Assembly: GCA_023819145.1 (NCBI GenBank)
Contig: JAMWCW010000001.1
Coordinates: forward strand, 66,400-130,399
DNA: 64,000 bases
Direction of reading: 5' to 3'
DNA from: Candidatus Omnitrophota bacterium
GTDB lineage: Bacteria > Omnitrophota > Gorgyraeia > DTHP01
The position numbers and the translations under genes were made by a program. Positions 13,552 to 31,612 of the stretch are shown here, in pieces. Numbering within the stretch: position 1 is the stretch's first letter; every line of letters starts with the position of its first letter. The notes under the pieces are model-generated. The model did not search any database, was not told where the DNA came from, and saw only the letters and a program-made list of their open reading frames with translations.

Positions 13552-13608
13552 ATTTTTTTGTAATATTTATATCTCCCTTTGGTTATAGATAATAGGGGGG
13601 CGAGAAAG

Positions 13609-14876: not shown

Positions 14877-16064
14877 ATGAAAAATAGTAGAGGAAAGATT
14901 TATGTTATGTTTTTGGGTTTGTTATTTTTCTTTCTTAACTCATTATTATATTTAGACTTATCTGCGGGATGCTCTTTCCGGCGAATCAAAACTCAACCTG
15001 CCAAAGAATCTGCGCTGGTGCTTTTTTTCCACGAATTAGGTAGAGAAGATATTTTTTTAGTGGGAGGAAAAGGGGCAAATTTGGGAGAACTTTCGCATAT
15101 TGCCGGGATAAGCGTTCCCGAGGGGTTTGTAGTTACCACCACCGCTTTTCAAAAATTTTTAGATGCCAACCCTGGATTACAAGATAAAATTATCAGGATT
15201 ATAAATAGTATAGATTGGGATACCCCTTCCAGTATAAACTCTGCTGCGGAAAAGATAAAAGAAGCGGTTTTGCGTGCGAACATGCCGCGAGAGATTATTG
15301 AGATGATTAAAGCAGGTTATGGCCATTTAGAAGAGATCTCCGGAATAAAGGATGTGCCCTGTGCTGTAAGAAGTTCGGGAGTTGCTGAGGATTCTCCTAA
15401 CTTTTCTTGGGCAGGTCAATTCCGCACTGAATTAAATCAGAGGGGAATATATCAGGTTTTAGAGGCGGTTAAATTAATCTGGGCAGAGTTGTATAATCCT
15501 GATGCCCTTACCTATGGACATCAGAATGGTATCGACCCGCGCAAATTTTCTATGGGAGTGGTAATTCAGCGGATGATAAATTCAGAGAAATCAGGAGTGG
15601 CTTTTGGACTGGAGTCCGATACAGGTTTTCGTGCCAATCCCGGAGGAATGGAAGGAGTTTTTTATATTGAAGGGGTTTATGGTTTAGGTGAAGGGATGGT
15701 GCAAAATATTCAAGAACCTGATGGATTTTTGGTAGTAAAGATGCCTAATGGTGAATTTAAAATTATTGAACGCATTTTCGGTTCCAAAAGAGAACAGATA
15801 GTTTATCGGTCTGGAATGAGTGGGACAGAGAAAACTTCGGTTCCCGAAGAATGGCGTCAGAGATGGGTTTTTTCAGAAGCAGAGGTGTTAGAGATTGCTC
15901 GTGCAGTTTTTGCCTTAAATAGCCACTATAATCATCCCCAGGATGTAGAATTTGCCTGGGAAGGAGGAAAACTATACATATTACAATCACGCAATGAGAC
16001 AGTTCATGCAGATAAACCAGTAGATTTAATTGAATGGAGAAAGTTTAGAATTAACCTTAAATGA
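14877..16064 (+). CDS. PEP synthase/pyruvate phosphate dikinase N-terminal nucleotide-binding (ATP-grasp) module, separate ORF, with RR leader
   Basis: LVGGKGANLGELSHIAGISVPEGFVVTTTAF matches PEP-utilising enzyme N-terminal signature; RBS gaggagg; leader VMFLGLLFFFLNSLLYLDLSAGCSFRRIKTQP. Confidence 0.75.
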   Translation: MKNSRGKIYVMFLGLLFFFLNSLLYLDLSAGCSFRRIKTQPAKESALVLFFHELGREDIFLVGGKGANLGELSHIAGISVPEGFVVTTTAFQKFLDANPGLQDKIIRIINSIDWDTPSSINSAAEKIKEAVLRANMPREIIEMIKAGYGHLEEISGIKDVPCAVRSSGVAEDSPNFSWAGQFRTELNQRGIYQVLEAVKLIWAELYNPDALTYGHQNGIDPRKFSMGVVIQRMINSEKSGVAFGLESDTGFRANPGGMEGVFYIEGVYGLGEGMVQNIQEPDGFLVVKMPNGEFKIIERIFGSKREQIVYRSGMSGTEKTSVPEEWRQRWVFSEAEVLEIARAVFALNSHYNHPQDVEFAWEGGKLYILQSRNETVHADKPVDLIEWRKFRINLK

Positions 16065-16083
16065 AAAAAGGGGGAGATAAATA

Positions 16084-18471
16084 ATGAAGTGGTTACATGT
16101 TAAAATTTTTTGGAGTATTGCCTTTTTAATTATTGCCAGCCTACTTTATGTTGATAATCTTTTTATGTTTTCTTCTTTAGATTTTATTACAAGAAGAGTA
16201 TTAACTCCTTCTTATACAGATTCTCCTTCGGTTGAGGTTCCCTCCGGTTCTCCTAAAATAATTGCCCGTGGAGAAGGGGTAGGTGCTAAAGGAGCGGGGG
16301 TAGGACGAGTGGTTATCATTGATGAAAATAGTTCCATCCCTATTCGTGAGCAGGCAATGCGTGTGCGCGAAGGAGATGTACTTGTTGCTTATCGCACCGA
16401 TCCTTCTTTGGTGGATGCCATGCGCCGAGCAGGTTTGGTGATTACTGAAATTGGAGGGAAAAATTCTCATGCTGCGATTGTCGCTAGAGAATTTAATTTA
16501 AATGCGGTTATTGGTGTGCCCAATGCTACGCGTATTTTTGCTCAAGGGCAGGTAGTTACTGTTGATGCTGAGCATGGAGTCATTTATGCTGGAGCTTTGC
16601 CGCTTGAAGAAGATAGTGTTTCCTATCGCGTGAGTGAACTTCCGTCTACGAGCCCTGTAAAGATAGGGATACTTTCCTTTGATACTGCTCGGGTGAGAGC
16701 GATGTTTCCTTTGGGTTTGTATTCTGATTTTTACGGTATAGGGCTGATGCGTGCAGAGTTTGCTTTACAAAATATTGGCATCCATCCGTTAGCAATATTG
16801 GATTTTGATAGAGGTACGCTTAGAGATGCAAGGCTACAAACAGAAATTACGCAAAAAATCAAAGGCTATGCGAGTGCGCGAGACTATTACATCTCAAAAC
16901 TTTCTTCTGCAATATTTTCCAATTCGCTTATTCTACATGAGGGGCAAAAGGTTATTTACCGCACCACTGATTTTAAAACCAACGAATATGAAGATATGTT
17001 AGGAGGGGATGTTTACGAGCATAAAGAGCCCAACCCCATGATGGGCAATCGCGGTTTACAGCGAATGATTAGTCCTGAATACCGGGAAGCATTTGATATG
17101 GAACTCGAAGCATTTTTACTTGCCTGGAAAGATAATCCGGGAAAGATTTCTATCATGGTTCCTATGGTACGCACTCCCCAAGACCTTCTGACTTTTCGTC
17201 AAATTCTTGAGGGAAAAATAAGGAGTATGGGGCTCTCGGGTATGCCTGAGGTAGTAATGATGTATGAATTGCCCGCGAATGTTTTTCAGATAGAGGAATT
17301 TATTCACGCCGGTATAAATGGTATTTCCATTGGTTCAAATGACCTGACACAATTTATTCTGGCAGTAGACAGGGACAGTGGTTTATTTAGAGAAGGAGGT
17401 AGAGAAGAATATGATGCCGTAAATAGAGCAGTATTGCGTGCTATCGGCATCGGTATAACTTCTTCTAAAGCCCGCGGTGTAAAAACAGGTATTTGTGGGC
17501 AAGCGCCATCAGACCATCCAGATGTTTATCCTGCAATTCTTACTGCTTTAGGAATAGATTCTATAAGTGTTACTCCCGATGTGTTTCATAAAGTGGTAGA
17601 AGCAGTAGCCCAAGCACAACAAAATCCTTCTTTTGGGATGAGATACCTTTCGGGTTTAGATTTATTTTTAGGCTACGATACCCAGACTAATCCCAAACGA
17701 GAATTAAAGAAGATAATTAGTTCTGATGATATACTTCGGAGTATTGGCATTCATCCTTTAGCCTTACTTGCCTTTGACCGGGGAAGTAGTTTATTGAGTG
17801 ATACGGCGATAAGTAGGCAGATTGTTTCTTTTGCCGGAGAAGAAACTGCAGAACGGGCTTACTTTGACCGTGTATATAGGGCGGTAAAGAATGCTTTACT
17901 TATGGATGGAGAGGTAGTTTATAGAACAGGAAGTTTGCTCAGTACCGATTATAAAACGCTTGTGGGAGGAGATATTTTTGAAAAAGAAGAAGCAAATCCC
18001 TTATTGGGTGCGTTTGGAATGTACCGCCTGCTCAGATATGGTTCAGAAGATGGCGCTTTGAGTATGCGTGATATTTTTAACATAGAGATGGATGCAGTTT
18101 TAAAAGCTGTGCGGGATACCGGTAAAGTTATTCATTTAGAGTTAGATATGGTGCGCACTTTTGGAGAATTACAGGAGGCAGTTTCTGTGATTAATGAGGC
18201 AATACGCCGTACAGGGATTTCTCCAGATAAGGTGAAAATTGGTCTAAATGTTTCTACTCCGGCAAATGTTCTGCTTATTTCTGATTTTATTAACCAAGGG
18301 AGATTAAGTTTTGTGAGTATCGACGAAAAAAGGTTAGCCTGTTATCTTTTGGGGGTGGATTCCTTGAGTATGGTTAGCCCCGAGGCTATTGAACGAGCCC
18401 TATATATACCTCGTCAACTGGTTTATACAGCATTAGCTCAAAAGGGAATCCCTTTAGTTAACTCCCCCTAA
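16084..18471 (+). CDS. PEP synthase/PPDK phosphohistidine swivel domain plus PEP/pyruvate-binding TIM barrel, followed by a degenerate second TIM-barrel copy, with RR leader
   Basis: GGKNSHAAIVAREFNLNAVIGV (mobile His domain), GLMRAEF, MVPMVRTPQD, SIGSNDLTQF (TIM-barrel motifs); second copy GIHPLALLAFDRG, LDMVRTFGEL, LSFVSIDEKRL lacks NDLTQ; leader IAFLIIASLLYVDNLFMFSS...FITRRVLTP. Confidence 0.75.
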   Translation: MKWLHVKIFWSIAFLIIASLLYVDNLFMFSSLDFITRRVLTPSYTDSPSVEVPSGSPKIIARGEGVGAKGAGVGRVVIIDENSSIPIREQAMRVREGDVLVAYRTDPSLVDAMRRAGLVITEIGGKNSHAAIVAREFNLNAVIGVPNATRIFAQGQVVTVDAEHGVIYAGALPLEEDSVSYRVSELPSTSPVKIGILSFDTARVRAMFPLGLYSDFYGIGLMRAEFALQNIGIHPLAILDFDRGTLRDARLQTEITQKIKGYASARDYYISKLSSAIFSNSLILHEGQKVIYRTTDFKTNEYEDMLGGDVYEHKEPNPMMGNRGLQRMISPEYREAFDMELEAFLLAWKDNPGKISIMVPMVRTPQDLLTFRQILEGKIRSMGLSGMPEVVMMYELPANVFQIEEFIHAGINGISIGSNDLTQFILAVDRDSGLFREGGREEYDAVNRAVLRAIGIGITSSKARGVKTGICGQAPSDHPDVYPAILTALGIDSISVTPDVFHKVVEAVAQAQQNPSFGMRYLSGLDLFLGYDTQTNPKRELKKIISSDDILRSIGIHPLALLAFDRGSSLLSDTAISRQIVSFAGEETAERAYFDRVYRAVKNALLMDGEVVYRTGSLLSTDYKTLVGGDIFEKEEANPLLGAFGMYRLLRYGSEDGALSMRDIFNIEMDAVLKAVRDTGKVIHLELDMVRTFGELQEAVSVINEAIRRTGISPDKVKIGLNVSTPANVLLISDFINQGRLSFVSIDEKRLACYLLGVDSLSMVSPEAIERALYIPRQLVYTALAQKGIPLVNSP

Positions 18472-18483
18472 CCGGGAAAAACC

Positions 18484-18582
18484 GACCCCACCTCGTAGGT
18501 GTCCTTTTCACTGTATTGTAAGTTGTTTTTATATGGATACTTATGTGGGACGATTTTGGCCACCTACGAGGTGGGCACGGTT
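18484..18582. repeat. REP/BIME-like element: two inverted hairpin units (CCACCTCGTAGGTG / CACCTACGAGGTGGG) about 55 nt apart
   Basis: ccccacctcgtaggtgtcc 18486-18504 and ggccacctacgaggtgggcacggtt 18558-18582 are mutual reverse complements; the same units recur at 29475-29573 and 30283-30380 flanking a RAYT gene. Confidence 0.6.
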
Positions 18583-18948
18583 AGTTTTGGTTTGGGTGTG
18601 GGTTGAGGAAAGTAGATTTTGGGTTGAGGAGTTAGATTAAGGAAAAATAAAAAACAGAATAGAATGTTTTGAGGTGTAAAGAAAGTTTACCCCCACAATG
18701 ATAGAAGATGTCAGTGTAAGTAGATATTTATCAGTAACTTATGGATAGATGCTCTTAGAATGTAATTTTAATTTACTTTCTTATTTGCCTTATGAAAAAA
18801 GGAGGAAGATAAATTTTCTTGTTTTATAGTCGGAAAAATCTGTCTTTGGTGATTATCTAATATTCTGGCATAAATTTTGCTTACTCTAGTAACAGAAAAA
18901 ATGTCAGAATTAAAAATTGAAATAAGAAAATTTTTACCATCTCTGCCA

Positions 18949-18977
18949 TTGACGATAAGAGAAAGATGTGATATAAT
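18949..18977 (+). promoter_or_regulatory. strong sigma70-like promoter TTGACG -17- TGaTATAAT (extended -10) for the giant YD-repeat gene
   Basis: TTGACG 18949-18954, extended -10 TGATATAAT 18969-18977; 25 nt upstream of ATG 19002. Confidence 0.5.
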
Positions 18978-19001
18978 TTATATAGAGAATAATAATAAAT
19001 A

Positions 19002-22000
19002 ATGAATAAAATAATAAAAATGATAAATATGGAAAAGAAGAGAAAATATATTCTTATCTTTTTGGGACTATTTTTGCTTATTAGTGCCTATGTAGAGGCA
19101 AAGGTGCGTACTCAAGTAATTCGCAATAGCCCCGTCCCGGAAAGAAATGTGGGAATTATTCCTGAGGCGCGTTCGGTAGAAGACTGGGCACGGGTGAGAA
19201 CTCAGGTTATAAAAGAAACAGAAAGGAGAAACCGTCAAATAGAGACCAGCCAGAATCTTCCCGATAAAATGGAAGATAGCCGGAGAGAGACAGAAGAGGA
19301 ACGCCTCAAATCCGCTTACAAAATAGAAAAAGATGCTCGGGAGATGAAACAAAAAATAGAGCAGGCTTCTCCCAATGAGGTGGTAGGAGAAAATCCCGAT
19401 GGGACAAAATGGTATCAATACTCAGGAAGATTTGACATCTTCAAGAACTGGATAAAAAACAAACTCAAAGAACTTGGCCTCTTGGATAAATGGAAGGGTG
19501 AAAGTTTTGAGGAATTAGTTCAAAAATATGGTAAAACCAATTTTGACCTCACCTTCAACAAAAAATCTTGGTCTTATTTTGGTAAGCGCTCCTCGACTCT
19601 GCAAACCACAGAATTTCAATTTAGTTTAACCAATCCCGAAGATAATTTTGAAAAATATATTCAGACGCGCTCGCGTCAATTAATCTGGGATAGCGCCAAT
19701 AATCGCGAGGCAGAAATTGTGCAACATACTATAACCGATGAGATAGAATGGGCAGGTAAGTTCTATGGCACGCCGGGAAAAACCGAACAAGGAAGGCAGA
19801 TGCTTTCTTCTCGCCAGAGAACTTGGGATGAGACCAGGGGAACTTATTCTGAGGTAAACCAGAGAAATGTCTATGAAGGGAATTTCCATATGCCCATTAA
19901 GACCATCCGCAAGGTCTTTGAATCGGGCTACGATACTAAAGGCAATTACTATGAACGCCGATACGAGATGACCCGTGAGAATATTGAATGGGCGTGGGTT
20001 GTTTCAAGTGACCCAATTTCTGGCGGAAGTTATGAAACAAAGAGCTTTGACCAGACGATGATTGATTATTCCACGCCTGATAAAAAGACAATTTCCCACC
20101 ATGAGTTTACTTATACTGATGATGGAGTTCCGGAAAGTCAATTGATTGTTAGCCGAGAAGTTGGTTTAGGGCTAAATCATATTTCAGTAAGTTTAGAAAG
20201 ATATCTTGACTACTACAAAGATGGTTCTTTGCGCCAAGGACTGAGTCTTGATCTCACTGGTGATTTTCCTGACGTATATACCGCCGTAAAAGAAGGAAGA
20301 ACTTTACAGAATTTAATCAATAATAAAGAAACAAAGTCGCAAATCGAAGCACAGTTGGGACGCAGTTTAAACTTGAACAATCCTCAAGATTTAAAAATCT
20401 ATACCGCTTATCTGAGGGAAGGATTGGGGGAAACAGCAAGAAAAATCAGTTTGAGTTTTGCCGAGAAGAAACACAATGACAAAGCATTCCTTGCCTGGGA
20501 AAAAGAGACAGTTGCCATTGAAGGAAAAGATGAAAATGGGAGCCTGATTAGTTCTAGCAGTGAAATAGAAAAAACTTATACCCAGTTCTTACCCTTTGGT
20601 CAACCCACAGAGATTGAGCAACTGATAAGAAGCGAAGCCACACCAAATGTAGAAACAAAATTAAAGATTTCTTTAAAATACAACAAGTATTGTCAGGTAA
20701 CTGAACAGAGAACCGAAACGCGAGAAACAAGCCTTGATGGCAAACTTAATAAACACACGATAAGCATAAAAGATAAAATTGTTTACAATGGTTTAGGACA
20801 GGAAATTTCCTATCGTGAGCGAGAAGAAGAATATGATATAGATGGAAAGCGCATTGGCAATCGTGAAACTTTAGTAAAAAATATTACCTATAATGAAGAT
20901 GGCTTGCAGACCGGTTACGAGATGCAGAGCATAACCAGAGGAATTGATACTCATGATGGAAGTATTTTTGAGATAATTACTGAAACAAAAGTGCGCGATA
21001 TCCGATATAATGAATTGGATATGCGTATATCCTGGAAGGAGATAAGTATAGATTTAAGCAGAAGCCCGGGATTAATTAGTGAGAGAATGTATCAGGTAAA
21101 GGCAATAGATGAATTTGGAAGAATTACGGAGATAGATATAAAAGAACACACTTATGGCACTGCTTCCGATGGAACCTCTCTAAATACTGAACGCACCATT
21201 AACCGCAAGATAAAATACAACTCTTTAGGTCAGGAAGAAGAGGCAATTGAGGAGGTAATTGAGAAGGCAAAGACCACTATCTCAACCATTAAATATGCCT
21301 ATGACCAGTATGGGAGAATTTCGCGCGAAGAAAGAAAAGTGCATGTAACGGGGAAAGATGGAGATAGCGAATTGGACTATACTTATACTCTATTGCGCTA
21401 TGGATTTGAGTACAATGATGCAGGACTTCTACAGAGATATAAGGCTAAAATCCGGAATGAATCTACAGCCGATATAGAAATAACTCAGGAGGTAGAGATT
21501 GGCTATGACAGTCTGGGAAGAGTAGATTATCAGAAGACTCAAGTCTGGGAAGATACGCGAAGCGGAGATAAGGCCTTACACAAATACACACTTACCGTAA
21601 GGGAAAACATTACCTATAATGAATTAGGATTAGAGACAGCTTATACTGAAACAGAGGAGGAATTTGATGAAGATGGAAAACGCATTGGCAATCGTAAGGT
21701 TAAGGTAAGTAACATTACTTATAATGAAGATGGTTTGCAGACTGGTTATGACATGGCGGTAATAGTAGAAGGGACTGATACCCATGACGGAAGTAGTTTT
21801 GAAACCTTTACCGAGATTAAAGTGCGCGATATTCGTTACAACAATTTAGGCATCCGCATTAGTTGGAGAGAAACCACCATAGATACAAGTAGGAGTCCAG
21901 GATTAACTACCGAAAGAAAATACGCGGTTACAGAGATAGATAGGTTTGGTAGACCTATAGAGCTTATAATCAATGAGCATGCTTATGGCTCTGCTTCTGA

Positions 22001-23138
22001 CGGGACAAGTTTAGATACCTTCCGCAAGATTACACGCCAGATAACCTACAATTCTTTAGGTCAGGAAGAGGAAATTACTGAAACCGTAGAAGAAGGGGCA
22101 AAGAAAACCACTTCCAAGATTAAGTACGAATACGATGAATGTGGCAGGATTAAATATGAAGAAAGAAATATTCATGTAGAGGGCGAAGAAGAGGGGGTTG
22201 AGTTGGATTATATTTCTACAATAAGGCGTTATGGATTTAAATACAATGATGCAGGGCTTGTACAGGGCTATACGGCAGAAATCTGGAACGAGTCCAGTCC
22301 CGACTTAGAAATAAAGCAGGAGGTAGAATTTGGCTATGACAGTCTGGGAAGAATAGACTATCAACGAAGCGAAACCTGGGAAAAGGGAATAAGTAAAAAG
22401 CGCGATAAACATGGTGAACCTACAGGCGAGGAAGAAGAGGTTGAACGGCATACAATTTCTGAGAAATATGATATCCAATATAATGAATTGGGCTTGGAAA
22501 CTTATTATAAAACCGATAGAAAAGAATACGAGGATGGAGAGTTAATCCGCGATGTTACCGAGACCACTTCGGGAATAAGGTATGATAGTAAGGGAAGAAT
22601 GACTGAATACACCACCCATAGAACTGGTCAAGAGAGATTCCTTGAAGACAGTGGAGAATATGGGGAATTAAAGAGTGTAAATATTACTACCCATATTTAC
22701 AACATTACCTATGTTGATGGTCTGGATTTAAGAAAATCCTGGAGAGAAGAAATTTCTGGTTATATAGGGGGACAGGAATTTAAGGCAAGCACCCGTCAAT
22801 ATGAAATCTTAGAATTTGACCGCTTTGGAGAAGTGGTAGATATAAATATTGAAGGAGATGGAGTGGAGGAGGAAAATTCTGCTCCTCAGATTGATACGCG
22901 GGGAACAACTTCTGGCCCAGAAGTTAATCAGACCACCAGACCTTACTCTCCGACAGGTTCAATAAAGACAACAAGTGTTCGTCGGGGACCAGTAAGAGGT
23001 TTAGGAGTGCGCGGAAAAAGTAGAACTTATGCAAAAAGACCTTCCGGAATAAGTCTTTTGAGTAGTGAATCCAGTCAGCGTAAGAAATTAGAAGAGGAAG
23101 CAGAATATATTACGCCAGATAAAGAAGAAGAAAAATAG
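19002..23138 (+). CDS. giant secreted YD-repeat (Rhs/teneurin-type) protein, 1378 aa, with two near-identical ~290-aa tandem super-repeats
   Basis: Signal peptide YILIFLGLFLLISAYVEA; YD-type units ITYNEDGLQTGY, YAYDQYGRISREE, YEYDECGRIKYEE, IGYDSLGRVDYQ; super-repeat from about aa 598-888 repeated at 889-1170 (nt about 20790-22510); alternative start at ATG 19029 (MEKKRK) is possible. Confidence 0.6.
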   Translation: MNKIIKMINMEKKRKYILIFLGLFLLISAYVEAKVRTQVIRNSPVPERNVGIIPEARSVEDWARVRTQVIKETERRNRQIETSQNLPDKMEDSRRETEEERLKSAYKIEKDAREMKQKIEQASPNEVVGENPDGTKWYQYSGRFDIFKNWIKNKLKELGLLDKWKGESFEELVQKYGKTNFDLTFNKKSWSYFGKRSSTLQTTEFQFSLTNPEDNFEKYIQTRSRQLIWDSANNREAEIVQHTITDEIEWAGKFYGTPGKTEQGRQMLSSRQRTWDETRGTYSEVNQRNVYEGNFHMPIKTIRKVFESGYDTKGNYYERRYEMTRENIEWAWVVSSDPISGGSYETKSFDQTMIDYSTPDKKTISHHEFTYTDDGVPESQLIVSREVGLGLNHISVSLERYLDYYKDGSLRQGLSLDLTGDFPDVYTAVKEGRTLQNLINNKETKSQIEAQLGRSLNLNNPQDLKIYTAYLREGLGETARKISLSFAEKKHNDKAFLAWEKETVAIEGKDENGSLISSSSEIEKTYTQFLPFGQPTEIEQLIRSEATPNVETKLKISLKYNKYCQVTEQRTETRETSLDGKLNKHTISIKDKIVYNGLGQEISYREREEEYDIDGKRIGNRETLVKNITYNEDGLQTGYEMQSITRGIDTHDGSIFEIITETKVRDIRYNELDMRISWKEISIDLSRSPGLISERMYQVKAIDEFGRITEIDIKEHTYGTASDGTSLNTERTINRKIKYNSLGQEEEAIEEVIEKAKTTISTIKYAYDQYGRISREERKVHVTGKDGDSELDYTYTLLRYGFEYNDAGLLQRYKAKIRNESTADIEITQEVEIGYDSLGRVDYQKTQVWEDTRSGDKALHKYTLTVRENITYNELGLETAYTETEEEFDEDGKRIGNRKVKVSNITYNEDGLQTGYDMAVIVEGTDTHDGSSFETFTEIKVRDIRYNNLGIRISWRETTIDTSRSPGLTTERKYAVTEIDRFGRPIELIINEHAYGSASDGTSLDTFRKITRQITYNSLGQEEEITETVEEGAKKTTSKIKYEYDECGRIKYEERNIHVEGEEEGVELDYISTIRRYGFKYNDAGLVQGYTAEIWNESSPDLEIKQEVEFGYDSLGRIDYQRSETWEKGISKKRDKHGEPTGEEEEVERHTISEKYDIQYNELGLETYYKTDRKEYEDGELIRDVTETTSGIRYDSKGRMTEYTTHRTGQERFLEDSGEYGELKSVNITTHIYNITYVDGLDLRKSWREEISGYIGGQEFKASTRQYEILEFDRFGEVVDINIEGDGVEEENSAPQIDTRGTTSGPEVNQTTRPYSPTGSIKTTSVRRGPVRGLGVRGKSRTYAKRPSGISLLSSESSQRKKLEEEAEYITPDKEEEK

Positions 23139-23395
23139 AAAAAAAATTACGGAGGATAACAAAAATCTTTCATTTTAAGTAATTGTAATTAAATAGTTTA
23201 AAAATTAATTTTATAAGCATGTAACTTAAGTTTACAATTATTAAACATTTTAGGGAGGAGAAAAAAGAGAGATAAAAAATGTAAATTTAATTATATTAAT
23301 TACTTATAAATGACGATGATTTTAGAGGAAAATTGGCATTAAACTTGCTTATATAAAGATGAAAAATTAAAATTTTGAAAAAAGGAGGGTAAAAA

Positions 23396-26300
23396 ATGAA
23401 AAAGACAAGATTTTTACTAAACCGGGCCGGGGGAATTTTAATACTTTTCTTAATTTTGGCTTTTACAAAGCCGGGAGAGGGATTATTTTTTACTGGTGAT
23501 GACCCTACTCAATACCATATGAGTACTGGATGCGGGATGTATGGTAATGGTTGTAATGCTTTTGGGGATCAAGAACGGCAAACTCCAGGCTTACTGAGGC
23601 AAATGAGTTCGTCACCGGCGTCTATTCAATTTAAGGACGGAATTCCAGTGACAGGGGATTCAGTGAGGTGGTCTCTTTTCGATCTGGATAATGATGGTAA
23701 TGTTGATTGTTATATAGATGAAAGTGGAAATAGATATTTAAAAACTATAACCTCAGATGGCATAATAACAGGTTATATTTTAGCAAAAAATCTTGAAAAT
23801 GGAGATTTAGATGTTCAAGTATATGGATATACTCAAACTTCAGGTTATTTTCCTATAATTCCTATAGAACCACTTGATCACACAGAACAGAATACTCAGG
23901 TAGTTGAAACACAATACCGTTTAGTGGCACATTTTAAAGTAGACCAAGCCGCTGGGCTTAATTCTTTAATAAAAGCTATTTTAGATGATACTCGCCTGCA
24001 ATCATTCCTTCAAAAATTTGATCCCAATATGAATAGTATGCTTAATGTGGGTGGCCAACAACTGAAGTTAGTTGAAAGTTTTACATATAACGATACAGAC
24101 TCTGAATGGAATAAAAATGACCAGGAGGAAAAATATTACTCCTCTATAAATGGATATTTAAAAAGGGAGGTAATTTCTGGAAAGGAATATTATTATGTCT
24201 ATAATTCCGACTATACCTTAGCTGCGCGCTATACAAAAGATACTAGTGGTGATATCACAAGCTTGACATTTATTACTCCTTCTGGAGGAGCTTTTGAGCG
24301 AGGTAAGTTAATTAGTGGGACTGAATATGAATTATCCGGGGCTTCCTTGGGGTATCTGAAGGGCTTATCGGAACTCTCGCTAAATATAAATAATATAGGT
24401 TCTTTAATGGAAAAATCTGCAATAATAGCGGGAACCTCATGGCTTAAGTTAGGCGAAAACCACTATTTTCAGCTTAAAAAAGGAACAATTGAGCAGGTAG
24501 TAACTGTAACTGTAGCAGACGATGGAAAATCTTCTTCTTTAACTTTGCAAAGGCTCAAATTGGAAGATGATAAATTGGTAGTAGTAAATGGTCAGTCAAT
24601 AACTGTTTCCAACGCGCTTTTAACTGGCAAGTTGCCAAGCGGATACTTAGATTCCTCAATTACTTCCCCTAAAGTCTTAGACCTTATTTTAAAAGGAGCC
24701 TCCATAGATTACACTCATCAGAGAATTTATTTTGATTATACAGGAAAGACTTATGCTTATGATGTTACTGGAGAAGGCTTACAGTATTATTATGTTTATT
24801 ATATGGGCGGAGGAAATACATTACCATTATTACAAATTTATGGTCCTGATACTAATATAACAACTGAAAACCCTGATTTAACTTTAACTGTGCCACAAGA
24901 ATTAAAAATCACTAATTTTACTTTTAATGTTAAAGGAACTAGCGCTACATTATCTTTCCAAGCAGATGGTAAAGAATACACATATAACCTTCCTACTAGT
25001 AAAAATGGTTCTTTTACCTTGAGTATTGATCCCCAAGCCACTGGTGCAGGGGTAATTGCACCTACTATTAAAATACTACCACCCGCATTAAGCGAGGAGC
25101 AAAAAAGATGGATTGCTAGTATTTTGGGTCTAGAAGACGATCCGGGTGGTCGAACAGCCGTACAACAATTGGATAATTTATTGGGAGATTCCCAAAATTA
25201 TTTTGTAACTGGTAATTATTTTGGGATTCAATCAGGAGAGAGTATTTTTATATTTAATACTTCCTCACTAAGTGCAGGTAGTAGATATCTTAAATTTGAT
25301 GGTAAAAATCTAATAATTAATGAGGGTACTACAACTATAACTATAGGAGATTTCGCTAAAGTTTTAAAGAGTCTAGGATTCTCTGCTTGGCTGGATGCTT
25401 TTAAATCTATGGAGGAAGATTCTCTGAGGACCCTTTTTGGACTAAATCCGAGCAATTCAGCCAATTTCACACTTGCCTTTGAGAAGATTATTACTGAGGC
25501 GCAGAAAGAGTTTTATAATTTCTCGTTTGAGAAAGACACAAGTGGTAGTAATTATTCGCCTAGGGGATATGCTAAGGCTATGTTGGATAATTCCCGATCT
25601 GTTGTTGTTGTTGAGTTTTATATTAGTGATGGGGATAGTTTCACCAAAGTTTTAGGATTTGATAGACCTACATTACTGCAAATATTAGATAGATCAGAAA
25701 CCTTTGAAGGCTTGTATGAAAAAGCTAAGGGATTTGTCAGGAATATTAGTTATGTAAAAAGGTTAGATGGAACTTATGTTTGGGTATGTAGTATAGGTAA
25801 TAAGTTTGTTCAATTTTATTCTATTGGAGGAGGAAGTGAATGGTGGGCATTGGCTGTTGATGCTACTGGTGATGTTACTGTATATGATAGCGGATGGGAG
25901 ATAAAATATACAATTGCTAAAATAGAGTTAGAATCGTCACCATCACCAAGCGTTGATTTAGTAAAAAGCCTAATTTTTGATGAGCAAACATTGCATCTTC
26001 TTCGGTTAAGTATAGAGCAAAGAGGAGACGGTGGTGTAACAGGTGTAACAATCCAAAGAAACAAAATAGAAGTGTGGGAACTGAAAAAAGCTTCGGCGAA
26101 TAGTAATGCGTTAAAGAGGATAGAAAAATTTACTTTGCTTGGAGAGGAATCTGTGGTAGCAGGAAGGGCGACCCCACTTGATCCAGAGCCAGTTATTGAA
26201 TTCGGCAGTAGAAAAATAAAGGAAATCCAATTTACCAATTTTGCGGGGATGGTAACCTTCGCTCGAGGAATTAGTTTTAAGACTCAGGGTGATAAAAGTT

Positions 26301-29300
26301 ATCTGATTTTAGGAGGAAAAATTTATGAGCTTTCTTTAGCAGAAGATGGATCAATCTTTACAATTAGCCAAACTCCTATTATTACGATTGAGCAACAAAC
26401 TTGGGAAGCAATAAGAACACTTATTGCTTACGAGCGGACAAATACTGGAAGTGTAACTGGCCCGAGTGCAATTGGCTGGGCTGATATTAGTATAGTAATA
26501 GAAAAAGAGGACAAAGTGTACTTTGAGGTGCCAGTGAAATCAATTGATGAGGGAAGATATGTATTGAGATTTGATAGTAAGGGACAATTAATTAAGAGAG
26601 ATGGTGCAGTATTGAGTTTTACTCCCACAGATTCAGATGAATCCCAAAAAGCAGAAAGCTTTAAAACATTTTTGCAAAATAATGTAGGCAATCTTCCTTT
26701 ATCTGCAGCAGGCAAAGCCTATGAGAGATTTTGTTCACAGTTGGCAATTGCTGGTGTGGCTAAAGTAGATTGGGAGATATTTCTTCGTAGCTGGAATGAA
26801 GGGGCAAAAACTCTTGAAGGCTTTAGTGACCCCGGATGGGGTGGGGGACTTAGTAGGAGCGAACTTATCGCGGCATTGGAGCTTAGTGATGAGCAGAAAC
26901 AACAGCAGTTGCGTAGAATTGAGGCTACAGATATAAATGGGTTTAATAAATATCTTTATATTGATGACAAGGGAAATATAGTTTATGTAGAAGAACTACC
27001 TGATCCCTCGAAAGGAAAATATAAAGGATATTTATTAAGGTATCAGTGGAATGATTCTGCTAATCCTCCGGAAGCGAATATTTCTGGAGTATTGGTAGGA
27101 GCTATGCAGCGTTCAACTTCACAAAATGTTTTATCACAAAATGTTTTATATGGAATAGTAGCAGAGGTTGATAATGGTGGGGGTTATGTAAAATTGAATG
27201 ATAAAGGATTTGAATTAAATTTAAATATTATATTTAAAGGTAATAACAAGGGGTATGAGAATCTTTTTGATTTTGAAACATACAAAATCGAAATCAAGGT
27301 TAGTAGAGTGGATAATACATTGACGCAGGTAGAAACAACGAATTGGGCTAATTCTAATGCGCAAAGATGGTATACGAGCTCTACCATTACTACAGTAGTA
27401 GGGCTACTGGAGGATGGGAAATTTGAAAAAAAGCGAGAAGAAAGGGTATTAAAAAATAATGAGGGGGAGCAAGAAACAATCACTTTTCCTGAATTTGATG
27501 GAAAAGGCAACCCCACTAAAAAACAGGTGCATTCTTTGAGGAAAGTCGATATTGAGGGTTGGGAATGGAGAGAGGATAATTATACAGAGACAGGAACTCT
27601 TAACAGTAATCAACAATGGGTGAGGAAAGGTTATGAACCTAATACTCAAAGGACAATTAAGCTAAGTAGAGGAAATGGGGATTATCTACAGCAGGAGTAC
27701 TCTATAGATGGAAATGGAAAAGCAATCAGATGTGTTATTGAGGAAAAAAGAGGTTCGGTAACTGCCAAAGTAGAAGAAGAAGTAGTAGGTGAAGGGGATT
27801 TATTATTCTTAGGAGAGAATACACAACTTACCTTGAATATTAATGGAGATAGGATAGATCCCAAAACAGGACAAACGGTAAGTGTAAGTGGCAATAATGT
27901 AGTAAGGTCTGTTTATGTATTTAAGGACGAAGAGGTGGCAGCACTTAAACAGCAGGGCTTAACCATAAGGGCTGGTATTCCTTATATCCTTGATAAATAT
28001 GAAGATGGTTCGTTTAGAATATATACCGCATTTGTAGAACAAACATATCTTGATGCACAAGGAAAACCTAAAGCGTATTATGTGGCTGGAGAATATGTAG
28101 GAACCCTTGGTTCAAAAAAAGCCAGTGACGGTGCCAGTGGCGGAGGCGGTGGAGGAGGTGGAGGAGGTGGAGGAGGTGGACCGGCAGGAAGTGACAAAAT
28201 TCCTCCTTCACAAATAGCTAATCAGGATACAGGAGAGATTGTTGGTGGTATGGAAGGGCAATTAGATGGTTTTGTGAAAAGAAGCTATCCTGAGAGAGTA
28301 GAGGAATTAGCTCATACTTATCGGGCAATGGGTCCGGGAATGAAGGAGAGAGCACTTTCTATAAACGATAGAGATAGTGCCAGAATATATCTATTGGGGA
28401 GATTTCTTTCCAGAGATAAAATTAAACAAGTTCTTTCGGTTCTTAAAAATAAGAATCTTTCTATTGAGGAAAAACGCGCTTTACTTAAGAAACTGGGGCT
28501 TTCGGATAAATTGCTTGACTTACTCCTTAATGGTGATGAAGAAGCATTAATTAAAGAAGCTCAAAAAATGCTCCTTAAGGATTTCGGGCTTTCTGATGAG
28601 GAGATTGAAGAATTCTTCAAGAGCAGTGATAAAAAAGGATATTTGCAGAAGAAAGGACTTTCTGATGAACGCATTGAGGCGGTAATGGAGATAACAGATT
28701 TAGAGAAGGCTCAAGAGGCAATCCTTAATCAGGAGGCAGTTTTGGAAGAGTTGCTCAGTGAGGAAGAGAAAGCACTTATGGAGGAGCTTTTTGCTTTGTT
28801 AGAGGAATATACCGGATTTATTAGTGATGAAGAGTATGCGGAATTAAGGGAGATTTTGGTAGATTTGGGGCTTTCTGAGGAGACCATAGATGATTTAATA
28901 GGTAAAAATGCGGATGAGTTTATGAATAGTCAGTTGCGGAATTGGGCAATGATGGATGAGAAAAATATTCTTGAATTGGCAAGGATGCTTTTCTTTGATG
29001 AAGACTTAAAGTTAGATAAATGGACTGCGGAGTTTATTGTAAAAGGTGATGAGTTTATGGTAAATGAGCTCTTAAGTAAAATTAGACAAGCAGTAAAAGA
29101 GTATCTTGAAGAGTATTGGGGTAAAGAGGTCAGTGAAGAAGAAGTTAAAGGTTTGGATGAGGCGACTAGAGAGAAAATTGCCGATGCTTTACTGCAAGCG
29201 ATAGGTAGAGGAGGACTTACGCTGGAAAATGCTTCTAAAAAAGTAAAGGAAATTCTTGCAGAGATTATCCCTTTGAAGGAAGCGAAAGAGGAGAAGAGCC

Positions 29301-29443
29301 CTATTCAGCCAGCACCTTCTCCGGAACCGTTACAGCCACAATCTCTTGCTGCGGTAAGTATTCAGGGTAACTGGAGGAGCAAAAATAATGATGATGATAT
29401 TCCGCGGTTGTTAAGAGAAAAAAATGAACTCAGAAGCAGATAG
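23396..29443 (+). CDS. giant secreted protein, 2015 aa, with Gly15 run and C-terminal acidic helical GLSDE-repeat region
   Basis: RBS aaaaggaggg; signal peptide ILILFLILAFTKPGEG; GGN-codon run 28138-28185 encoding G15; repeated GLSDEEIE / GLSDERIE / GLSEETID motifs about 28460-28890; no recognisable catalytic motif. Confidence 0.55.
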   Translation: MKKTRFLLNRAGGILILFLILAFTKPGEGLFFTGDDPTQYHMSTGCGMYGNGCNAFGDQERQTPGLLRQMSSSPASIQFKDGIPVTGDSVRWSLFDLDNDGNVDCYIDESGNRYLKTITSDGIITGYILAKNLENGDLDVQVYGYTQTSGYFPIIPIEPLDHTEQNTQVVETQYRLVAHFKVDQAAGLNSLIKAILDDTRLQSFLQKFDPNMNSMLNVGGQQLKLVESFTYNDTDSEWNKNDQEEKYYSSINGYLKREVISGKEYYYVYNSDYTLAARYTKDTSGDITSLTFITPSGGAFERGKLISGTEYELSGASLGYLKGLSELSLNINNIGSLMEKSAIIAGTSWLKLGENHYFQLKKGTIEQVVTVTVADDGKSSSLTLQRLKLEDDKLVVVNGQSITVSNALLTGKLPSGYLDSSITSPKVLDLILKGASIDYTHQRIYFDYTGKTYAYDVTGEGLQYYYVYYMGGGNTLPLLQIYGPDTNITTENPDLTLTVPQELKITNFTFNVKGTSATLSFQADGKEYTYNLPTSKNGSFTLSIDPQATGAGVIAPTIKILPPALSEEQKRWIASILGLEDDPGGRTAVQQLDNLLGDSQNYFVTGNYFGIQSGESIFIFNTSSLSAGSRYLKFDGKNLIINEGTTTITIGDFAKVLKSLGFSAWLDAFKSMEEDSLRTLFGLNPSNSANFTLAFEKIITEAQKEFYNFSFEKDTSGSNYSPRGYAKAMLDNSRSVVVVEFYISDGDSFTKVLGFDRPTLLQILDRSETFEGLYEKAKGFVRNISYVKRLDGTYVWVCSIGNKFVQFYSIGGGSEWWALAVDATGDVTVYDSGWEIKYTIAKIELESSPSPSVDLVKSLIFDEQTLHLLRLSIEQRGDGGVTGVTIQRNKIEVWELKKASANSNALKRIEKFTLLGEESVVAGRATPLDPEPVIEFGSRKIKEIQFTNFAGMVTFARGISFKTQGDKSYLILGGKIYELSLAEDGSIFTISQTPIITIEQQTWEAIRTLIAYERTNTGSVTGPSAIGWADISIVIEKEDKVYFEVPVKSIDEGRYVLRFDSKGQLIKRDGAVLSFTPTDSDESQKAESFKTFLQNNVGNLPLSAAGKAYERFCSQLAIAGVAKVDWEIFLRSWNEGAKTLEGFSDPGWGGGLSRSELIAALELSDEQKQQQLRRIEATDINGFNKYLYIDDKGNIVYVEELPDPSKGKYKGYLLRYQWNDSANPPEANISGVLVGAMQRSTSQNVLSQNVLYGIVAEVDNGGGYVKLNDKGFELNLNIIFKGNNKGYENLFDFETYKIEIKVSRVDNTLTQVETTNWANSNAQRWYTSSTITTVVGLLEDGKFEKKREERVLKNNEGEQETITFPEFDGKGNPTKKQVHSLRKVDIEGWEWREDNYTETGTLNSNQQWVRKGYEPNTQRTIKLSRGNGDYLQQEYSIDGNGKAIRCVIEEKRGSVTAKVEEEVVGEGDLLFLGENTQLTLNINGDRIDPKTGQTVSVSGNNVVRSVYVFKDEEVAALKQQGLTIRAGIPYILDKYEDGSFRIYTAFVEQTYLDAQGKPKAYYVAGEYVGTLGSKKASDGASGGGGGGGGGGGGGGPAGSDKIPPSQIANQDTGEIVGGMEGQLDGFVKRSYPERVEELAHTYRAMGPGMKERALSINDRDSARIYLLGRFLSRDKIKQVLSVLKNKNLSIEEKRALLKKLGLSDKLLDLLLNGDEEALIKEAQKMLLKDFGLSDEEIEEFFKSSDKKGYLQKKGLSDERIEAVMEITDLEKAQEAILNQEAVLEELLSEEEKALMEELFALLEEYTGFISDEEYAELREILVDLGLSEETIDDLIGKNADEFMNSQLRNWAMMDEKNILELARMLFFDEDLKLDKWTAEFIVKGDEFMVNELLSKIRQAVKEYLEEYWGKEVSEEEVKGLDEATREKIADALLQAIGRGGLTLENASKKVKEILAEIIPLKEAKEEKSPIQPAPSPEPLQPQSLAAVSIQGNWRSKNNDDDIPRLLREKNELRSR

Positions 29444-29472
29444 GTTAAACAAAAGTAATTAACCCCAAACCC

Positions 29473-30380
29473 CTGCCCACCGCGTAGGTGGGCATTTTTT
29501 CTTGACATAAGCTTATAAATTTGCTATATTTATTATAGAGTTTAAGGGACACCTACGCGGTGGGATAGGTTTTATTAATTATAGGAGAGTATAAAGAAGT
29601 TAACGAGAGTTAAGGAGAAAAAATGAGAAAGAATTTTCTGGCAGTAGGAGAAATTTATCACGTGTTGAATAAAAGTATTGCGGGTTTTCAGATTTTTAAC
29701 GATGAAGATGAATATCAGCGAATGGCTGGGCTTTTTGCCTATTATCAAAAAGAGAATCCTCCAGTTAAGTTCTCTAAGTATTTAAATTCCAATAAAAAAG
29801 GTTCTGAGGGGGAGAATACAGGAAATAAATTAGTGGAAATTATCGCCTATTGTCTTATGCCTACCCATCTTCATCTCTTATTGAGACAGATGAAAGAAGA
29901 AGGGATTTCTCTTTTTATGGGAAATGTTTTAAATAGCTACACCCGCTATTTTAATACCCGACATAAGCGCAAAGGACCTCTCTGGGAGGGTAGATTTAAA
30001 AGAATTCAAGTAAAAACCGAGGAAAATTTATTGCACCTTACCCGCTATATCCATCTTAATCCGGTTACAGCGTATCTGGTGAACAAGCCCGAGGATTGGC
30101 TTTTTTCTTCTTATCGAGAGTATTTAGGTCAGGTTGATGGTAAGGAGAAAATTTGCAATTTTGAAGATTCTTTAGAGATAGGCCCTGACTATAAAGAATT
30201 TGTGGAAGATAGAATTTCTTACCAGAGAGAACTTGCTCAGATTAAAGATTTAATAGTTGAAAACCTCTCCACCTAAACCTTAGACCACCTCGTAGGTGTC
30301 CTAAATCGATGATTATAAGTGTAAGAAATTATGTAGCTTATGATGAAGGAAATAGACCACCTACGAGGTGGGTACGGTTT
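29473..30380 (+). mobile_element. REPtron: RAYT gene flanked on both sides by REP/BIME hairpin pairs; the upstream pair contains a terminator-like hairpin and an embedded promoter
   Basis: gcccaccgcgtaggtgggc+TTTTTT (29475-29500) then ggacacctacgcggtgggataggtttt (29547-29573); TTGACA 29502-29507 -17- TATATT 29525-29530 between the units; downstream pair gaccacctcgtaggtgtcc 30283-30301 and gaccacctacgaggtgggtacggttt 30355-30380. Confidence 0.65.
29623..30276 (+). CDS. REP-associated tyrosine transposase (RAYT, IS200/IS605 Y1 HuH family)
   Basis: HuH motif AYCLMPTHLHLLL, LWEGRFKRIQV, catalytic-Tyr region LTRYIHLNPVTAYLV, WLFSSYREY; 217 aa; RBS aaggag. Confidence 0.8.
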   Translation: MRKNFLAVGEIYHVLNKSIAGFQIFNDEDEYQRMAGLFAYYQKENPPVKFSKYLNSNKKGSEGENTGNKLVEIIAYCLMPTHLHLLLRQMKEEGISLFMGNVLNSYTRYFNTRHKRKGPLWEGRFKRIQVKTEENLLHLTRYIHLNPVTAYLVNKPEDWLFSSYREYLGQVDGKEKICNFEDSLEIGPDYKEFVEDRISYQRELAQIKDLIVENLST

Positions 30381-30439
30381 ATAACGGTAGGAAAAGGAAG
30401 GAAGAAGAGGAAAGGTAAGTGAGAGGAGGAAAGAGGGAG

Positions 30440-30838
30440 ATGAAAAAAAGAATTCTGTTTTTGGGGATGGTTGGAGTATTATTGAGTTTTGTTTCTTGTG
30501 GAAAGGCAAAAGAGGAAGTTTACGAATCAGAGACAAAGGCAAGCGAAGAGGTGAAAATAGCTATGGTAGAGGAGGGAGAAATGGCCCAGAAACCTGAACT
30601 AAAATATGTGGAAGGAGAGCTTTTAGTAAAGTTTAAACCCGAAGTTTCTGCAGAAGAGATAATTACGATCCTCAAAGACGAATATCAATGCGAGATTATT
30701 GATATTATAAAAGGATTAGATGTTTACAGGATAAAAATGCCCAAAGGAAAAACTGTCCCCGAGATGGTGGAGTTATTGAGTAAAGATGAACGGGTGAAAT
30801 ACGCCGAACCTAACTATATCTATCGCTTACAGATGTAG
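30440..30838 (+). CDS. small lipoprotein with subtilase-propeptide (inhibitor I9)-like domain
   Basis: Signal MKKRILFLGMVGVLLSFVSC (lipobox-like); LLVKFKPEVSAEEI...VYRIKMPKG...VKYAEPNY resembles peptidase inhibitor I9 / subtilisin pro-domain ending in YAEPNY; ORF track starts at GTG 30419. Confidence 0.4.
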   Translation: MKKRILFLGMVGVLLSFVSCGKAKEEVYESETKASEEVKIAMVEEGEMAQKPELKYVEGELLVKFKPEVSAEEIITILKDEYQCEIIDIIKGLDVYRIKMPKGKTVPEMVELLSKDERVKYAEPNYIYRLQM

Positions 30839-30847
30839 AGGTAAAAC

Positions 30848-31612
30848 ATGAGACGCAGTATAATCGCGAGAGATAAAGCGGAATTAGTGCGCAAAATGAG
30901 GCTAAAATATTTATTTTCTTTTGGCGTAATCAGCGGGTTTGTTTTTTACTCTGGCTTGGCTTTCGCAGAGGAAAAAGCAGAAAAGCTTGAGGATTACAGC
31001 AAGTACGGTTATACCCTTAAATATAAAGACCCCAAGGTCTATACTACGCAACCGGGAGAAAAAGAATCTCCCTACCATCAGAAAGAACCCCAGCTTCCTC
31101 CCGCTTTAGAAGGCAGAACCAAATCGCCCCAATGGTCTAAACCAGAAAAGTTGCAAGAGGTTAAACCGGAAGAACTCTACATGCCTCCCTTGGAAGCAAT
31201 TTTAGGCTCATTACCACCTCCTCGCGAAGAGGAAAGCGTAGAAGAAAAGATTTTAACTAAAGAAGGGGAGATTTCCTTAGAGGCTTGGGGAGAAAAAGTA
31301 GAGTTAATGATTGAGGAAGTTCTGGGGAAAGAAGCTGAGGTGAAATTGGTAAGAGAAGGATTTTCTTTTACTACGCCGGTTACTCCCGTAGAGGAAGAAG
31401 AAGAAAAAGAAGTCCAAGAAAAACCTTCTACCTCCCTTTTCTCTGATACTTGGGAGATGCTTATCCAAGAAGGAAGGGTTACCCTTAAACCTTTAGGGAA
31501 AGTCTCACCCGAAGATTTAGAGAAAATTGCTGCTTATTTAGTAGACCTCTTAGGAAGGGGCGGAGAAATAACTAAGATAAGTCCGGAAGGAATTGAGGTT
31601 GAACTAAAATAG
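30848..31612 (+). CDS. hypothetical Pro/Glu-rich membrane-anchored protein
   Basis: One N-proximal hydrophobic segment LFSFGVISGFVFYSGLAFA; low-complexity PE-rich middle; no known motif. Confidence 0.3.
   Translation: MRRSIIARDKAELVRKMRLKYLFSFGVISGFVFYSGLAFAEEKAEKLEDYSKYGYTLKYKDPKVYTTQPGEKESPYHQKEPQLPPALEGRTKSPQWSKPEKLQEVKPEELYMPPLEAILGSLPPPREEESVEEKILTKEGEISLEAWGEKVELMIEEVLGKEAEVKLVREGFSFTTPVTPVEEEEEKEVQEKPSTSLFSDTWEMLIQEGRVTLKPLGKVSPEDLEKIAAYLVDLLGRGGEITKISPEGIEVELK

Follow-up and report, generated by a model that had tools for sequence, protein, structure and literature searches.

Repetitive extragenic palindromic (REP) elements and REP-associated tyrosine transposases (RAYTs) together form units called REPtrons, in which each RAYT gene goes with its own palindrome (PMC6006769). 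The closest described systems are the REPtron of Escherichia coli (RAYT TnpA_REP, gene yafM, structure 4ER8); the RAYT system of Pseudomonas fluorescens SBW25 with its REP doublets forming hairpins (REPINs; Bertels and Rainey 2011, PMC3116915); the TnpA_Y1 proteins of subclass 2.1, also known as Bertels' group 1 and as the terminal inverted repeat (TIR)-associated tyrosine transposases (TIRYTs) of TIRtrons (PMC6006769, PMC5581495, PMC3733652); and the TnpA-only insertion sequence (IS) IS200 of the IS200/IS605 family. Here, we describe a 64-kb stretch of DNA from a Candidatus Omnitrophota bacterium (contig JAMWCW010000001.1, positions 66,400 to 130,399; hereafter, the window), in which the gene for a 217-aa RAYT-like protein lies between two of three hairpin doublets. 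This system is very probably a REPtron, i.e., a single-copy, vertically inherited RAYT-type Y1 HuH gene with cognate palindromic repeats. It would thus be a domesticated hairpin-cutting transposase gene of an uncultured Omnitrophota member, flanked by its own repeat, and a known kind of system.

The resemblance to E. coli covers both protein and repeats. The window protein is a Y1 HuH protein with a Y-x-x-x-N-P motif whose best match by sequence and by fold is 4ER8; its gene, present once in the window and apparently stable in position, is placed between inverted REP pairs; and the repeats are extragenic, lie past gene 3′ ends, and come in two variants per pair, as do the Y and Z REPs of E. 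coli bacterial interspersed mosaic elements. Unlike TnpA_REP, the protein is longer (217 against 165 aa), carries an additional segment at the N-terminus and a conserved tail at the C-terminus, is only 16% identical to 4ER8, has THLH as its HuH motif, and scores below the NCBIfam equivalog cut-off, while its hairpins lack GT[AG]G at the 5′ foot and have an apparently low copy number against the hundreds of E. coli. As in SBW25 (PMC3116915), a pair of inverted REPs separated by a short spacer makes up one long hairpin, the repeat comprises the entire doublet together with its spacer (in one doublet, both arms show a loop change in mirrored form), the RAYT gene has copies on either side, and this gene appears to be vertically inherited. 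Unlike SBW25, where REPINs number tens to hundreds, the window shows only three doublets, and these are old (spacers 63 to 71% identical); the spacer of one of them doubles as a predicted RAYT promoter, and the RAYT belongs to a different clade.

Subclass 2.1 provides the best fit among the published motifs (YIHLNP, W-E, and an SS tail; Table 1, PMC6006769), and agreement extends to protein length (217 aa against a median of 238 aa), wide taxonomic spread, and flanking repeats of low abundance; some TIRs of TIRtrons are likewise self-complementary and occur in dimers or clusters (PMC5581495, PMC3733652). Unlike subclass 2.1, the window protein has THLH instead of NH[VYF]H and no detected C-terminal helix-turn-helix (HTH)-like domain, in a comparison based on published motifs, and its clade has clear hairpins, whereas the subclass was reported without REP-like ones (PMC6006769). 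With IS200, the locus shares the catalytic fold, hairpins at both ends of a unit of ~0.9 kb, and a terminator-like hairpin before the promoter. It differs from IS200/IS605 TnpA (about 150 aa, Y-x-x-x-Q, many near-identical copies, often with tnpB) in its 217 aa, its YIHLNP motif (Y---NP, not Y---Q), its one copy in the window, and its synteny across lineages, and in having further hairpins, as separate doublets, at a distance from the gene.

Three copies of a REPIN-like element in the window

A first-pass annotation of this DNA had reported hairpin units with a CCACC/GGTGG stem, arranged as inverted pairs at three sites. The arrangement was confirmed with the 14-mer core CCACCNCGTAGGTG, which, at no more than one mismatch, had six matches in the window, at 18488 (+), 18561 (−), 29477 (+), 29550 (−), 30285 (+), and 30358 (−), compared with 0.00 expected from 100 dinucleotide-preserving shuffles of the window; at 3 mismatches, no credible extra copy appeared there. 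These six units make up three inverted pairs with exactly 59 nt between the cores at all three sites: doublet A (18474–18588; cores at 18488–18501, loop TCGTA, and 18561–18574, loop TACGA), doublet B (29463–29577; cores at 29477–29490, loop GCGTA, and 29550–29563, loop TACGC), and doublet C (30271–30385; cores at 30285–30298, loop TCGTA, and 30358–30371, loop TACGA), none of which is assigned a strand. The full CCACC/GGTGG stem did not hold for all units, being present in only three of the six, while the other three carry GGTGT on the spacer side and form a 5-bp CACCT/AGGTG stem with a 3-nt loop. Overall, stems range from 5 to 8 bp and loops from 3 to 5 nt, and all six units are intergenic, which fits the description of a short (20 to 40 nt) extragenic imperfect palindrome.

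The repeated unit also proved larger than first described. When both strands are aligned, it spans ~110 nt, i.e., the doublet plus its spacer, with conserved outer AAACC../..GGTT extensions and a conserved central ATAAG..CTTAT. Spacer identity was 37/59 for A versus C in the same orientation, 42/59 for B versus C in reverse orientation (0 of 500 shuffles were as good), and 37/59 for A versus B in reverse orientation, with 0 to 3 of 500 shuffles as good across the three doublets. Because the spacers are homologous, the three sites are, as judged from these alignments, copies of one REPIN-like element, with doublet B inverted relative to A and C; therefore, the two copies that flank the RAYT gene are mutually inverted. 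Folded as single-stranded DNA (ssDNA), each doublet region (~120 to 130 nt) forms a long hairpin (z-scores of −3.5 to −6.2) in which the two units of the doublet and the outer AACC/GGTT are paired.

Each doublet contains two unit variants, reading ..GGTGTCC and ..GGTGG[G/C/T]C on the spacer side, and the GGTGTCC type is the gene-proximal one on both sides of the 217-aa gene. All 13 fixed core positions are identical in the six units, whereas the spacers are 29 to 37% diverged, and this contrast argues for selection on, or homogenization of, the cores. The single variable loop position (the N of the core) sets B apart from A and C, with both arms of B carrying the change in mirrored form (GCGTA and TACGC). 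All three doublets lie 3 to 20 nt past a stop codon: doublet A, in the same orientation as C, begins 3 nt after the stop of a PEP-utilizers gene, and the first core of doublet C lies 9 nt past the RAYT stop codon. No known RNA family accounts for the hairpins, as neither Rfam (at gathering thresholds) nor a search for tRNAs gave any match in the window. Integron attC sites, considered for the AAC...GTT ends, were rejected, as these ends misfit RYYYAAC/GTTRRRY and the repeats track the Y1 gene in about 80 loci. A purine-rich tract (68 to 87% A+G, compared with 55% in the window) follows the right end of each doublet (18583–18660, 29566–29622, and 30376–30445) and extends at B and C into the ribosome-binding-site region of the next gene, while at A no gene follows for ~340 nt.

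A RAYT-like Y1 HuH protein between two doublets

Doublets B and C flank the 217-aa gene (29623–30276, + strand), in which the first-pass annotation had read a HuH Y1 transposase from the motifs THLHLLL and RYIHLNPV; the open reading frame is present with both. That annotation had named in advance the absence of a Y1 match in a hidden Markov model search as a possible refutation; the protein matched PF01797 (Y1_Tnp) at 33.9 bits, above the gathering cut-off of 23 (E = 3.8e-8), as did all 18 members of a family alignment (A2). The putative active-site residues are THLH (H82/H84) and Y142 within RYIHLNP, accompanied by W121-E and a tail motif (W159..S162-S163), and H82, H84, and Y142 are invariant in an alignment of 120 homologs. 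The Y---NP pattern, into which RYIHLNP fits, is the signature of class 2 TnpA_Y1 proteins (PMC6006769).

Profile search and structure prediction both pointed to the RAYT type that had been proposed. In the PDB profile search, the best match was 4ER8 (E. coli TnpA_REP; 1.6e-5), with ISDra2 TnpA at 4e-3. An AlphaFold2 (AF2) model built from the 120-sequence alignment (mean predicted local distance difference test [pLDDT] of 85) had 4ER8_A as its top Foldseek match (E = 4e-8, probability of 1.00, template modeling [TM] score normalized to the target of 0.65), while the ISDra2, IS608, and IS200 TnpAs scored 3e-4 to 1e-3, about four orders of magnitude weaker. This model superseded one from an 18-sequence alignment (pLDDT of 57), the Foldseek matches of which were meaningless. 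Sequence and predicted fold thus agree in placing it among the Y1 HuH proteins, nearest to RAYT/TnpA_REP. At its C-terminus, no Bac_DnaA_C or HTH_23/28 domain was matched even at E ≤ 1. The gene occurs once in the window, with no tnpB adjacent.

An identical protein is annotated as “transposase” in a Candidatus Omnitrophota metagenome-assembled genome (MAG), and more than 5,700 homologs, many at ~60% identity (roughly 55 to 70%), were found in Omnitrophota, Scalindua, Brocadiaceae, anammox Planctomycetota, Hippea, and others.

Matched hairpins flank homologous genes in other genomes

We analyzed 85 homologous loci (80 metagenome loci plus the homologs described below; individual loci are designated by L numbers). 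The proposed REPtron architecture, hairpin-gene-hairpin, recurs in this set: matched perfect hairpins were present on both sides of the gene in 54 of the 85 loci, centered about 20 to 155 nt (mostly 30 to 80 nt) before the start and about 10 to 30 nt after the stop. Upstream and downstream hairpins were in direct orientation in 32 of these 54 loci and inverted in 15. An ACC-N5-GGT top is common to 100 of 125 unique flank hairpins. Below it, stem positions 6 to 9, which are not imposed by hairpin selection, pair in 92, 83, 78, and 67% of hairpins, compared with 61, 49, 43, and 41% in shuffled controls, figures somewhat inflated by taking the longest hairpin per flank; several base-pair types occur at these positions, so that the lower stem co-varies. 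Hairpin type tracks RAYT similarity weakly, albeit significantly (57.9% protein identity for a shared stem arm versus 56.1%; 0 of 500 permutations). Taken at the level of sequence, the hairpin is tied to the RAYT gene.

The window core itself recurs with several homologs. It is present on both sides of the gene in L012 (72% identity), L014 (65%), and L016/L098 (65%), or as CCACTTCGTAGGTGG in L098, and also on both sides of the L011 homolog. The surroundings of the L014 gene, which lies between QRPTase and UvrB, are unrelated. When representative genomes of GTDB were scanned with the doublet pattern, this yielded 11 loci in 8 MAGs, including a Hippea MAG with a doublet upstream of a 52%-identical RAYT homolog and another unit downstream. 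As a family-wide feature, the doublet was rejected, since single hairpins prevail among the relatives and, in L012, direct repeats lie 3′ of the RAYT gene, where the window has doublet C. In the orthologous hairpin 5′ of the gene, ACACC-TACGC-GGTGG in the window (29550–29563) versus ACACC-TCGTA-GGTGG in L012 (4271–4283), the arms (ACACC...GGTGG) are identical and the 5-nt loop is reverse-complemented.

Two further arrangements were noted among the homologs. In L051, a complete hairpin is nested inside an inverted REP pair upstream of the gene. Two RAYT paralogs ~40 kb apart on one 532-kb contig (L084 and L097), only about 54% identical to the window RAYT, have a different cognate hairpin each.

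Dispersal of the hairpins away from the gene

In related MAGs, doublets with the same core were also found on further contigs. Contigs that carry no RAYT have clusters of two to four same-core units, and 30 of 32 such units in these MAGs are extragenic. One MAG (BS750m-G21) has four contigs with such doublets, and another doublet locus (L004) belongs to the same MAG as L012, the carrier of the closest (72%-identical) RAYT. Within 307 kb of RAYT-centered loci, 20 cognate hairpins lie >400 nt from the gene (0.3 expected), 12 of them in two overlapping loci. In the window, the only doublet distant from the RAYT gene is A, 11 kb away. From these counts, the hairpin family looks like a low-copy one and resembles Bertels' group 1 more than groups 2 and 3, which are rich in REPs (PMC5581495).

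A predicted terminator and promoter within doublet B

According to the first-pass annotation, doublet B doubles as the terminator of a 2,015-aa gene upstream and contains a promoter directed at the RAYT gene; both predictions agree with our analysis. The left REP unit of B provides an intrinsic-terminator-like site (29474–29500, + strand), namely the hairpin GCCCACCgcgtaGGTGGGC with an 8-bp stem (6 G-C pairs) and a 5-nt loop followed by T6, which ranked first among the terminator-like sites of the region from 18000 to 31000. In the spacer, a sigma-70-like promoter (TTGACA-17-TATATT with TG before the −10 box; 29502–29530, + strand) agrees with the consensus at 11 of 12 positions and ranks among the top two promoter matches of the 13-kb region, the other preceding the neighboring gene G1 (see below). 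The B hairpin, the T-run, and CTTGACA(T/C)AAG are kept in L012/L013 and L098, and the −35 box and adjacent bases are invariant across these loci and the window. The assignment of a candidate terminator and promoter thus rests on consensus and on conservation in two lineages.

Neighboring genes and synteny

Two giant genes, G1 (19002–23138, 1,378 aa) and G2 (23396–29443, 2,015 aa), both on the + strand, are neighbors of the RAYT gene outside the REP system. Contrary to what had been stated, their fit between REP pairs A and B is not exact, since doublet A ends about 415 nt 5′ of the G1 start and doublet B starts 20 nt 3′ of the G2 stop. Neither protein had a usable Pfam, NCBIfam, or PDB match; PDB matches of G2 were rejected as an artifact of a Gly14 run aligned to linkers of single-chain variable fragments. 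Only seven G1 homologs were found, all in Omnitrophota.

Synteny in related genomes speaks against the suggestion that the giant genes form a RAYT/REP-delimited insertion. At the same position in L016/L098, there is a 72 to 76%-identical G1 and a 1,310-aa protein that is 63% identical to the C-terminal ~400 residues of G2; the N-terminal ~1,600 residues of G2 are lineage-specific and not kept in relatives. The order in these loci is that of the window, i.e., G1, giant partner, and RAYT, then a Fervidolysin_NPro-like (FervN) gene, a ~250-aa gene, and OEP, MFP, and RND genes. Identities to L012/L016 are 72/65% for the RAYT, 83/76% for OEP, 74/70% for FervN, and 64/60% for p254, with G1 at 72 to 76%; across three lineages, the RAYT gene is found at one chromosomal site, and its divergence in step with its neighbors suggests vertical descent.

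Upstream, a Peptidase_S8 gene directly abuts G1 in L098, L101, and L102. In the window, the Peptidase_S8 gene (13579–14769) is separated from G1 by doublet A and a PPDK_N (395 aa) plus PEP-utilizers (795 aa) pair (14877–18471, + strand) that has doublet A at its 3′ edge. No homolog of this pair was present in any fetched locus, and on this comparison it is the pair, not the giant genes, that is lineage-specific at this position. In L098, no REP lies between S8 and G1, which leaves doublet A without a counterpart there. The G1 promoter region (18859–19016) is conserved, and there is no GC-content step across the giant-gene region. Because relatives share the order of G1, the divergent giant partner, the RAYT, and the efflux genes that follow, the giant genes are, by this sequence comparison, ancestral neighbors of the RAYT and not its cargo.

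Several further features of the neighborhood were recorded. The PPDK_N and PEP-utilizers genes resemble a split PPDK/PEP-synthase-like enzyme. G1 has a signal-peptide-like N-terminus, an internal duplication of ~277 aa (residues ~595 to 845 versus ~872 to 1122; 163/250 identical), and recurring YNxxG/YDxxGR motifs that recall YD/RHS repeats, with no Pfam RHS match. G2 has a run of 14 glycines (28139–28180) and acidic “GLSDEE”-type repeats near its C-terminus. Peptidase_S8, G1, G2, RAYT, a Fervidolysin N-prodomain-like protein, a ~250-aa protein, OEP (with an AMIN match), HlyD/MFP, and two RND pumps make up a conserved Omnitrophota cluster (13579–42295 in the window; L012, L016, and L098), and the stretch from S8 to RND may serve to export or process the giant proteins. 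On another Omnitrophota contig (L100, 6152–7412), a 23S_rRNA_IVP gene, a HicAB toxin-antitoxin pair, and a small uncharacterized gene lie between a G1 homolog and a 2,556-aa giant gene; this locus yielded no REP of the CCACC type. Nearly all gene-like open reading frames of at least 100 aa in the window are on the (+) strand, and GC skew is positive in every 2-kb bin. This suggests that the window belongs to a single replichore whose genes are strongly biased toward the leading strand. AT skew is raised from ~18 to ~36 kb.

DISCUSSION

A scheme of catalysis, mobility, termination, and autoregulation can be proposed for this REPtron. By analogy with E. coli TnpA_REP (PMC3479197) and the TnpA of IS200/IS605, the RAYT would bind the hairpin in ssDNA and cut and rejoin the adjacent ssDNA by means of Tyr142 and the HuH metal site; such cutting and rejoining might occasionally copy or move REP units or doublets and so keep the cores uniform. 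Protein-mediated copying or replacement fits the invariant cores, the mirrored arm changes, and the lineage-specific rearrangement of units (the L012 direct repeats). The hairpins just past stop codons could act as terminators or as stabilizers of mRNA 3′ ends, with the left unit of B and its T6 probably terminating the 2,015-aa gene. With its promoter in the B spacer, the RAYT message would start between two hairpins and end at a third, which would make autoregulation possible.

Some of this evidence would equally suit hairpins that are mainly cis-acting transcript elements (terminators, 5′- or 3′-untranslated-region stabilizers, or an IS200-like block of read-through), the extra copies having arisen by ordinary recombination. 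All three doublets follow a stop codon by 3 to 20 nt, the left unit of B with T6 is the best terminator-like site of the region, the order terminator-promoter-hairpin is conserved, and within ±5 kb most family members have only the two gene-flanking hairpins. We nevertheless consider this quite improbable, given that the same hairpin type accompanies the gene in different contexts and phyla (L014 and L011), that stems co-vary from locus to locus with upstream and downstream copies matched, that related MAGs have dispersed extragenic clusters with no RAYT close by, and that the best fold match is a hairpin-bound ssDNA nuclease; besides, a cis role and a REPtron are not mutually exclusive. An autonomous, still mobile IS200-like element, made up of the 923 bp that doublets B and C delimit and include, is very improbable. 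The protein has the Y-x-x-x-N-P motif and not the Y-x-x-x-Q of IS200 TnpA, the gene occurs once in 64 kb without tnpB and keeps one chromosomal position in three lineages with a divergence matching that of its neighbors, and the two same-contig paralogs are only about 54% identical to the query and have different hairpins. These observations outweigh the Y1 transposase fold, the hairpins at both ends (direct in 32 of 54 loci, like the left and right ends of IS200/IS605), and the terminator-like hairpin 5′ of the promoter. IS200 has such a terminator-like hairpin upstream of its promoter.

As for an island delimited by REP pairs A and B, mobilized by the RAYT or acquired by recombination together with the giant genes, the two doublets do bracket 19002–29443 and are mutually inverted, and the N-terminal ~1,600 residues of G2 are not conserved in relatives. 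Set against this are G1 and its giant partner at the same place in L016/L098, beside the same RAYT and efflux genes and without doublet A, the sequence of Peptidase_S8 then G1 in three relatives, the conserved G1 promoter region, and the even GC content, and the island is in our view hardly credible.

The points that weigh against a REPtron concern both the protein and the repeats. The score for the NCBIfam REP_Tyr_transpos equivalog (NF047646) was 67.5 bits, under the 80-bit cut-off, and going by this score the protein is related to that equivalog group but not a member. Its HuH is THLH and not the D/N-H-x-H of the described subclasses (Table 1, PMC6006769). The GT[AG]G of canonical REPs was not found at the hairpin foot: in CCACC-TCGTA-GGTGG, GTAG runs from the loop into the first base of the 3′ arm, and other loops of the family (CCAGG, TCCGA, and CCCGG) lack GTAG. 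Copy number, as far as it is visible, is low as well, since the six units of the window all lie within 12 kb, with none in the other 52 kb, and most homologous loci have no cognate hairpin within ±5 kb besides the two flanking ones. Finally, with doublet spacers 29 to 37% diverged, there is no sign of recent mobility. On a further reading, the protein would represent a large, undescribed clade of RAYT-like Y1 proteins with a low-copy ACC-N5-GGT hairpin that has no GTAG foot, is present in one copy per gene side, and has a loop that can be flipped between fixed arms. We regard this as unlikely. If so, recognition would go through the loop and upper stem, and the role would be a host-domesticated one (self-regulation or local ssDNA processing), not genome-wide REP amplification. 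By most tests, the system in the window is nonetheless a REPtron, with the NCBIfam equivalog threshold and the GT[AG]G foot as the two features of membership that stand against it.

No mention of Omnitrophota together with RAYT, REPIN, or repetitive extragenic sequences was found in the literature searched, and the REPtron described here extends RAYT/REP systems to this phylum. It also indicates that a widespread “IS200-like transposase” annotation in uncultured phyla really denotes a hairpin-flanked, syntenic RAYT-type gene. For annotation, such a RAYT gene is no evidence of a mobile island, and the giant genes that adjoin it are not cargo. For the family, the conserved ACC-N5-GGT hairpin with its co-varying stems (about 80 loci) offers a ready set of substrates for the study of DNA recognition by non-GTAG RAYTs.

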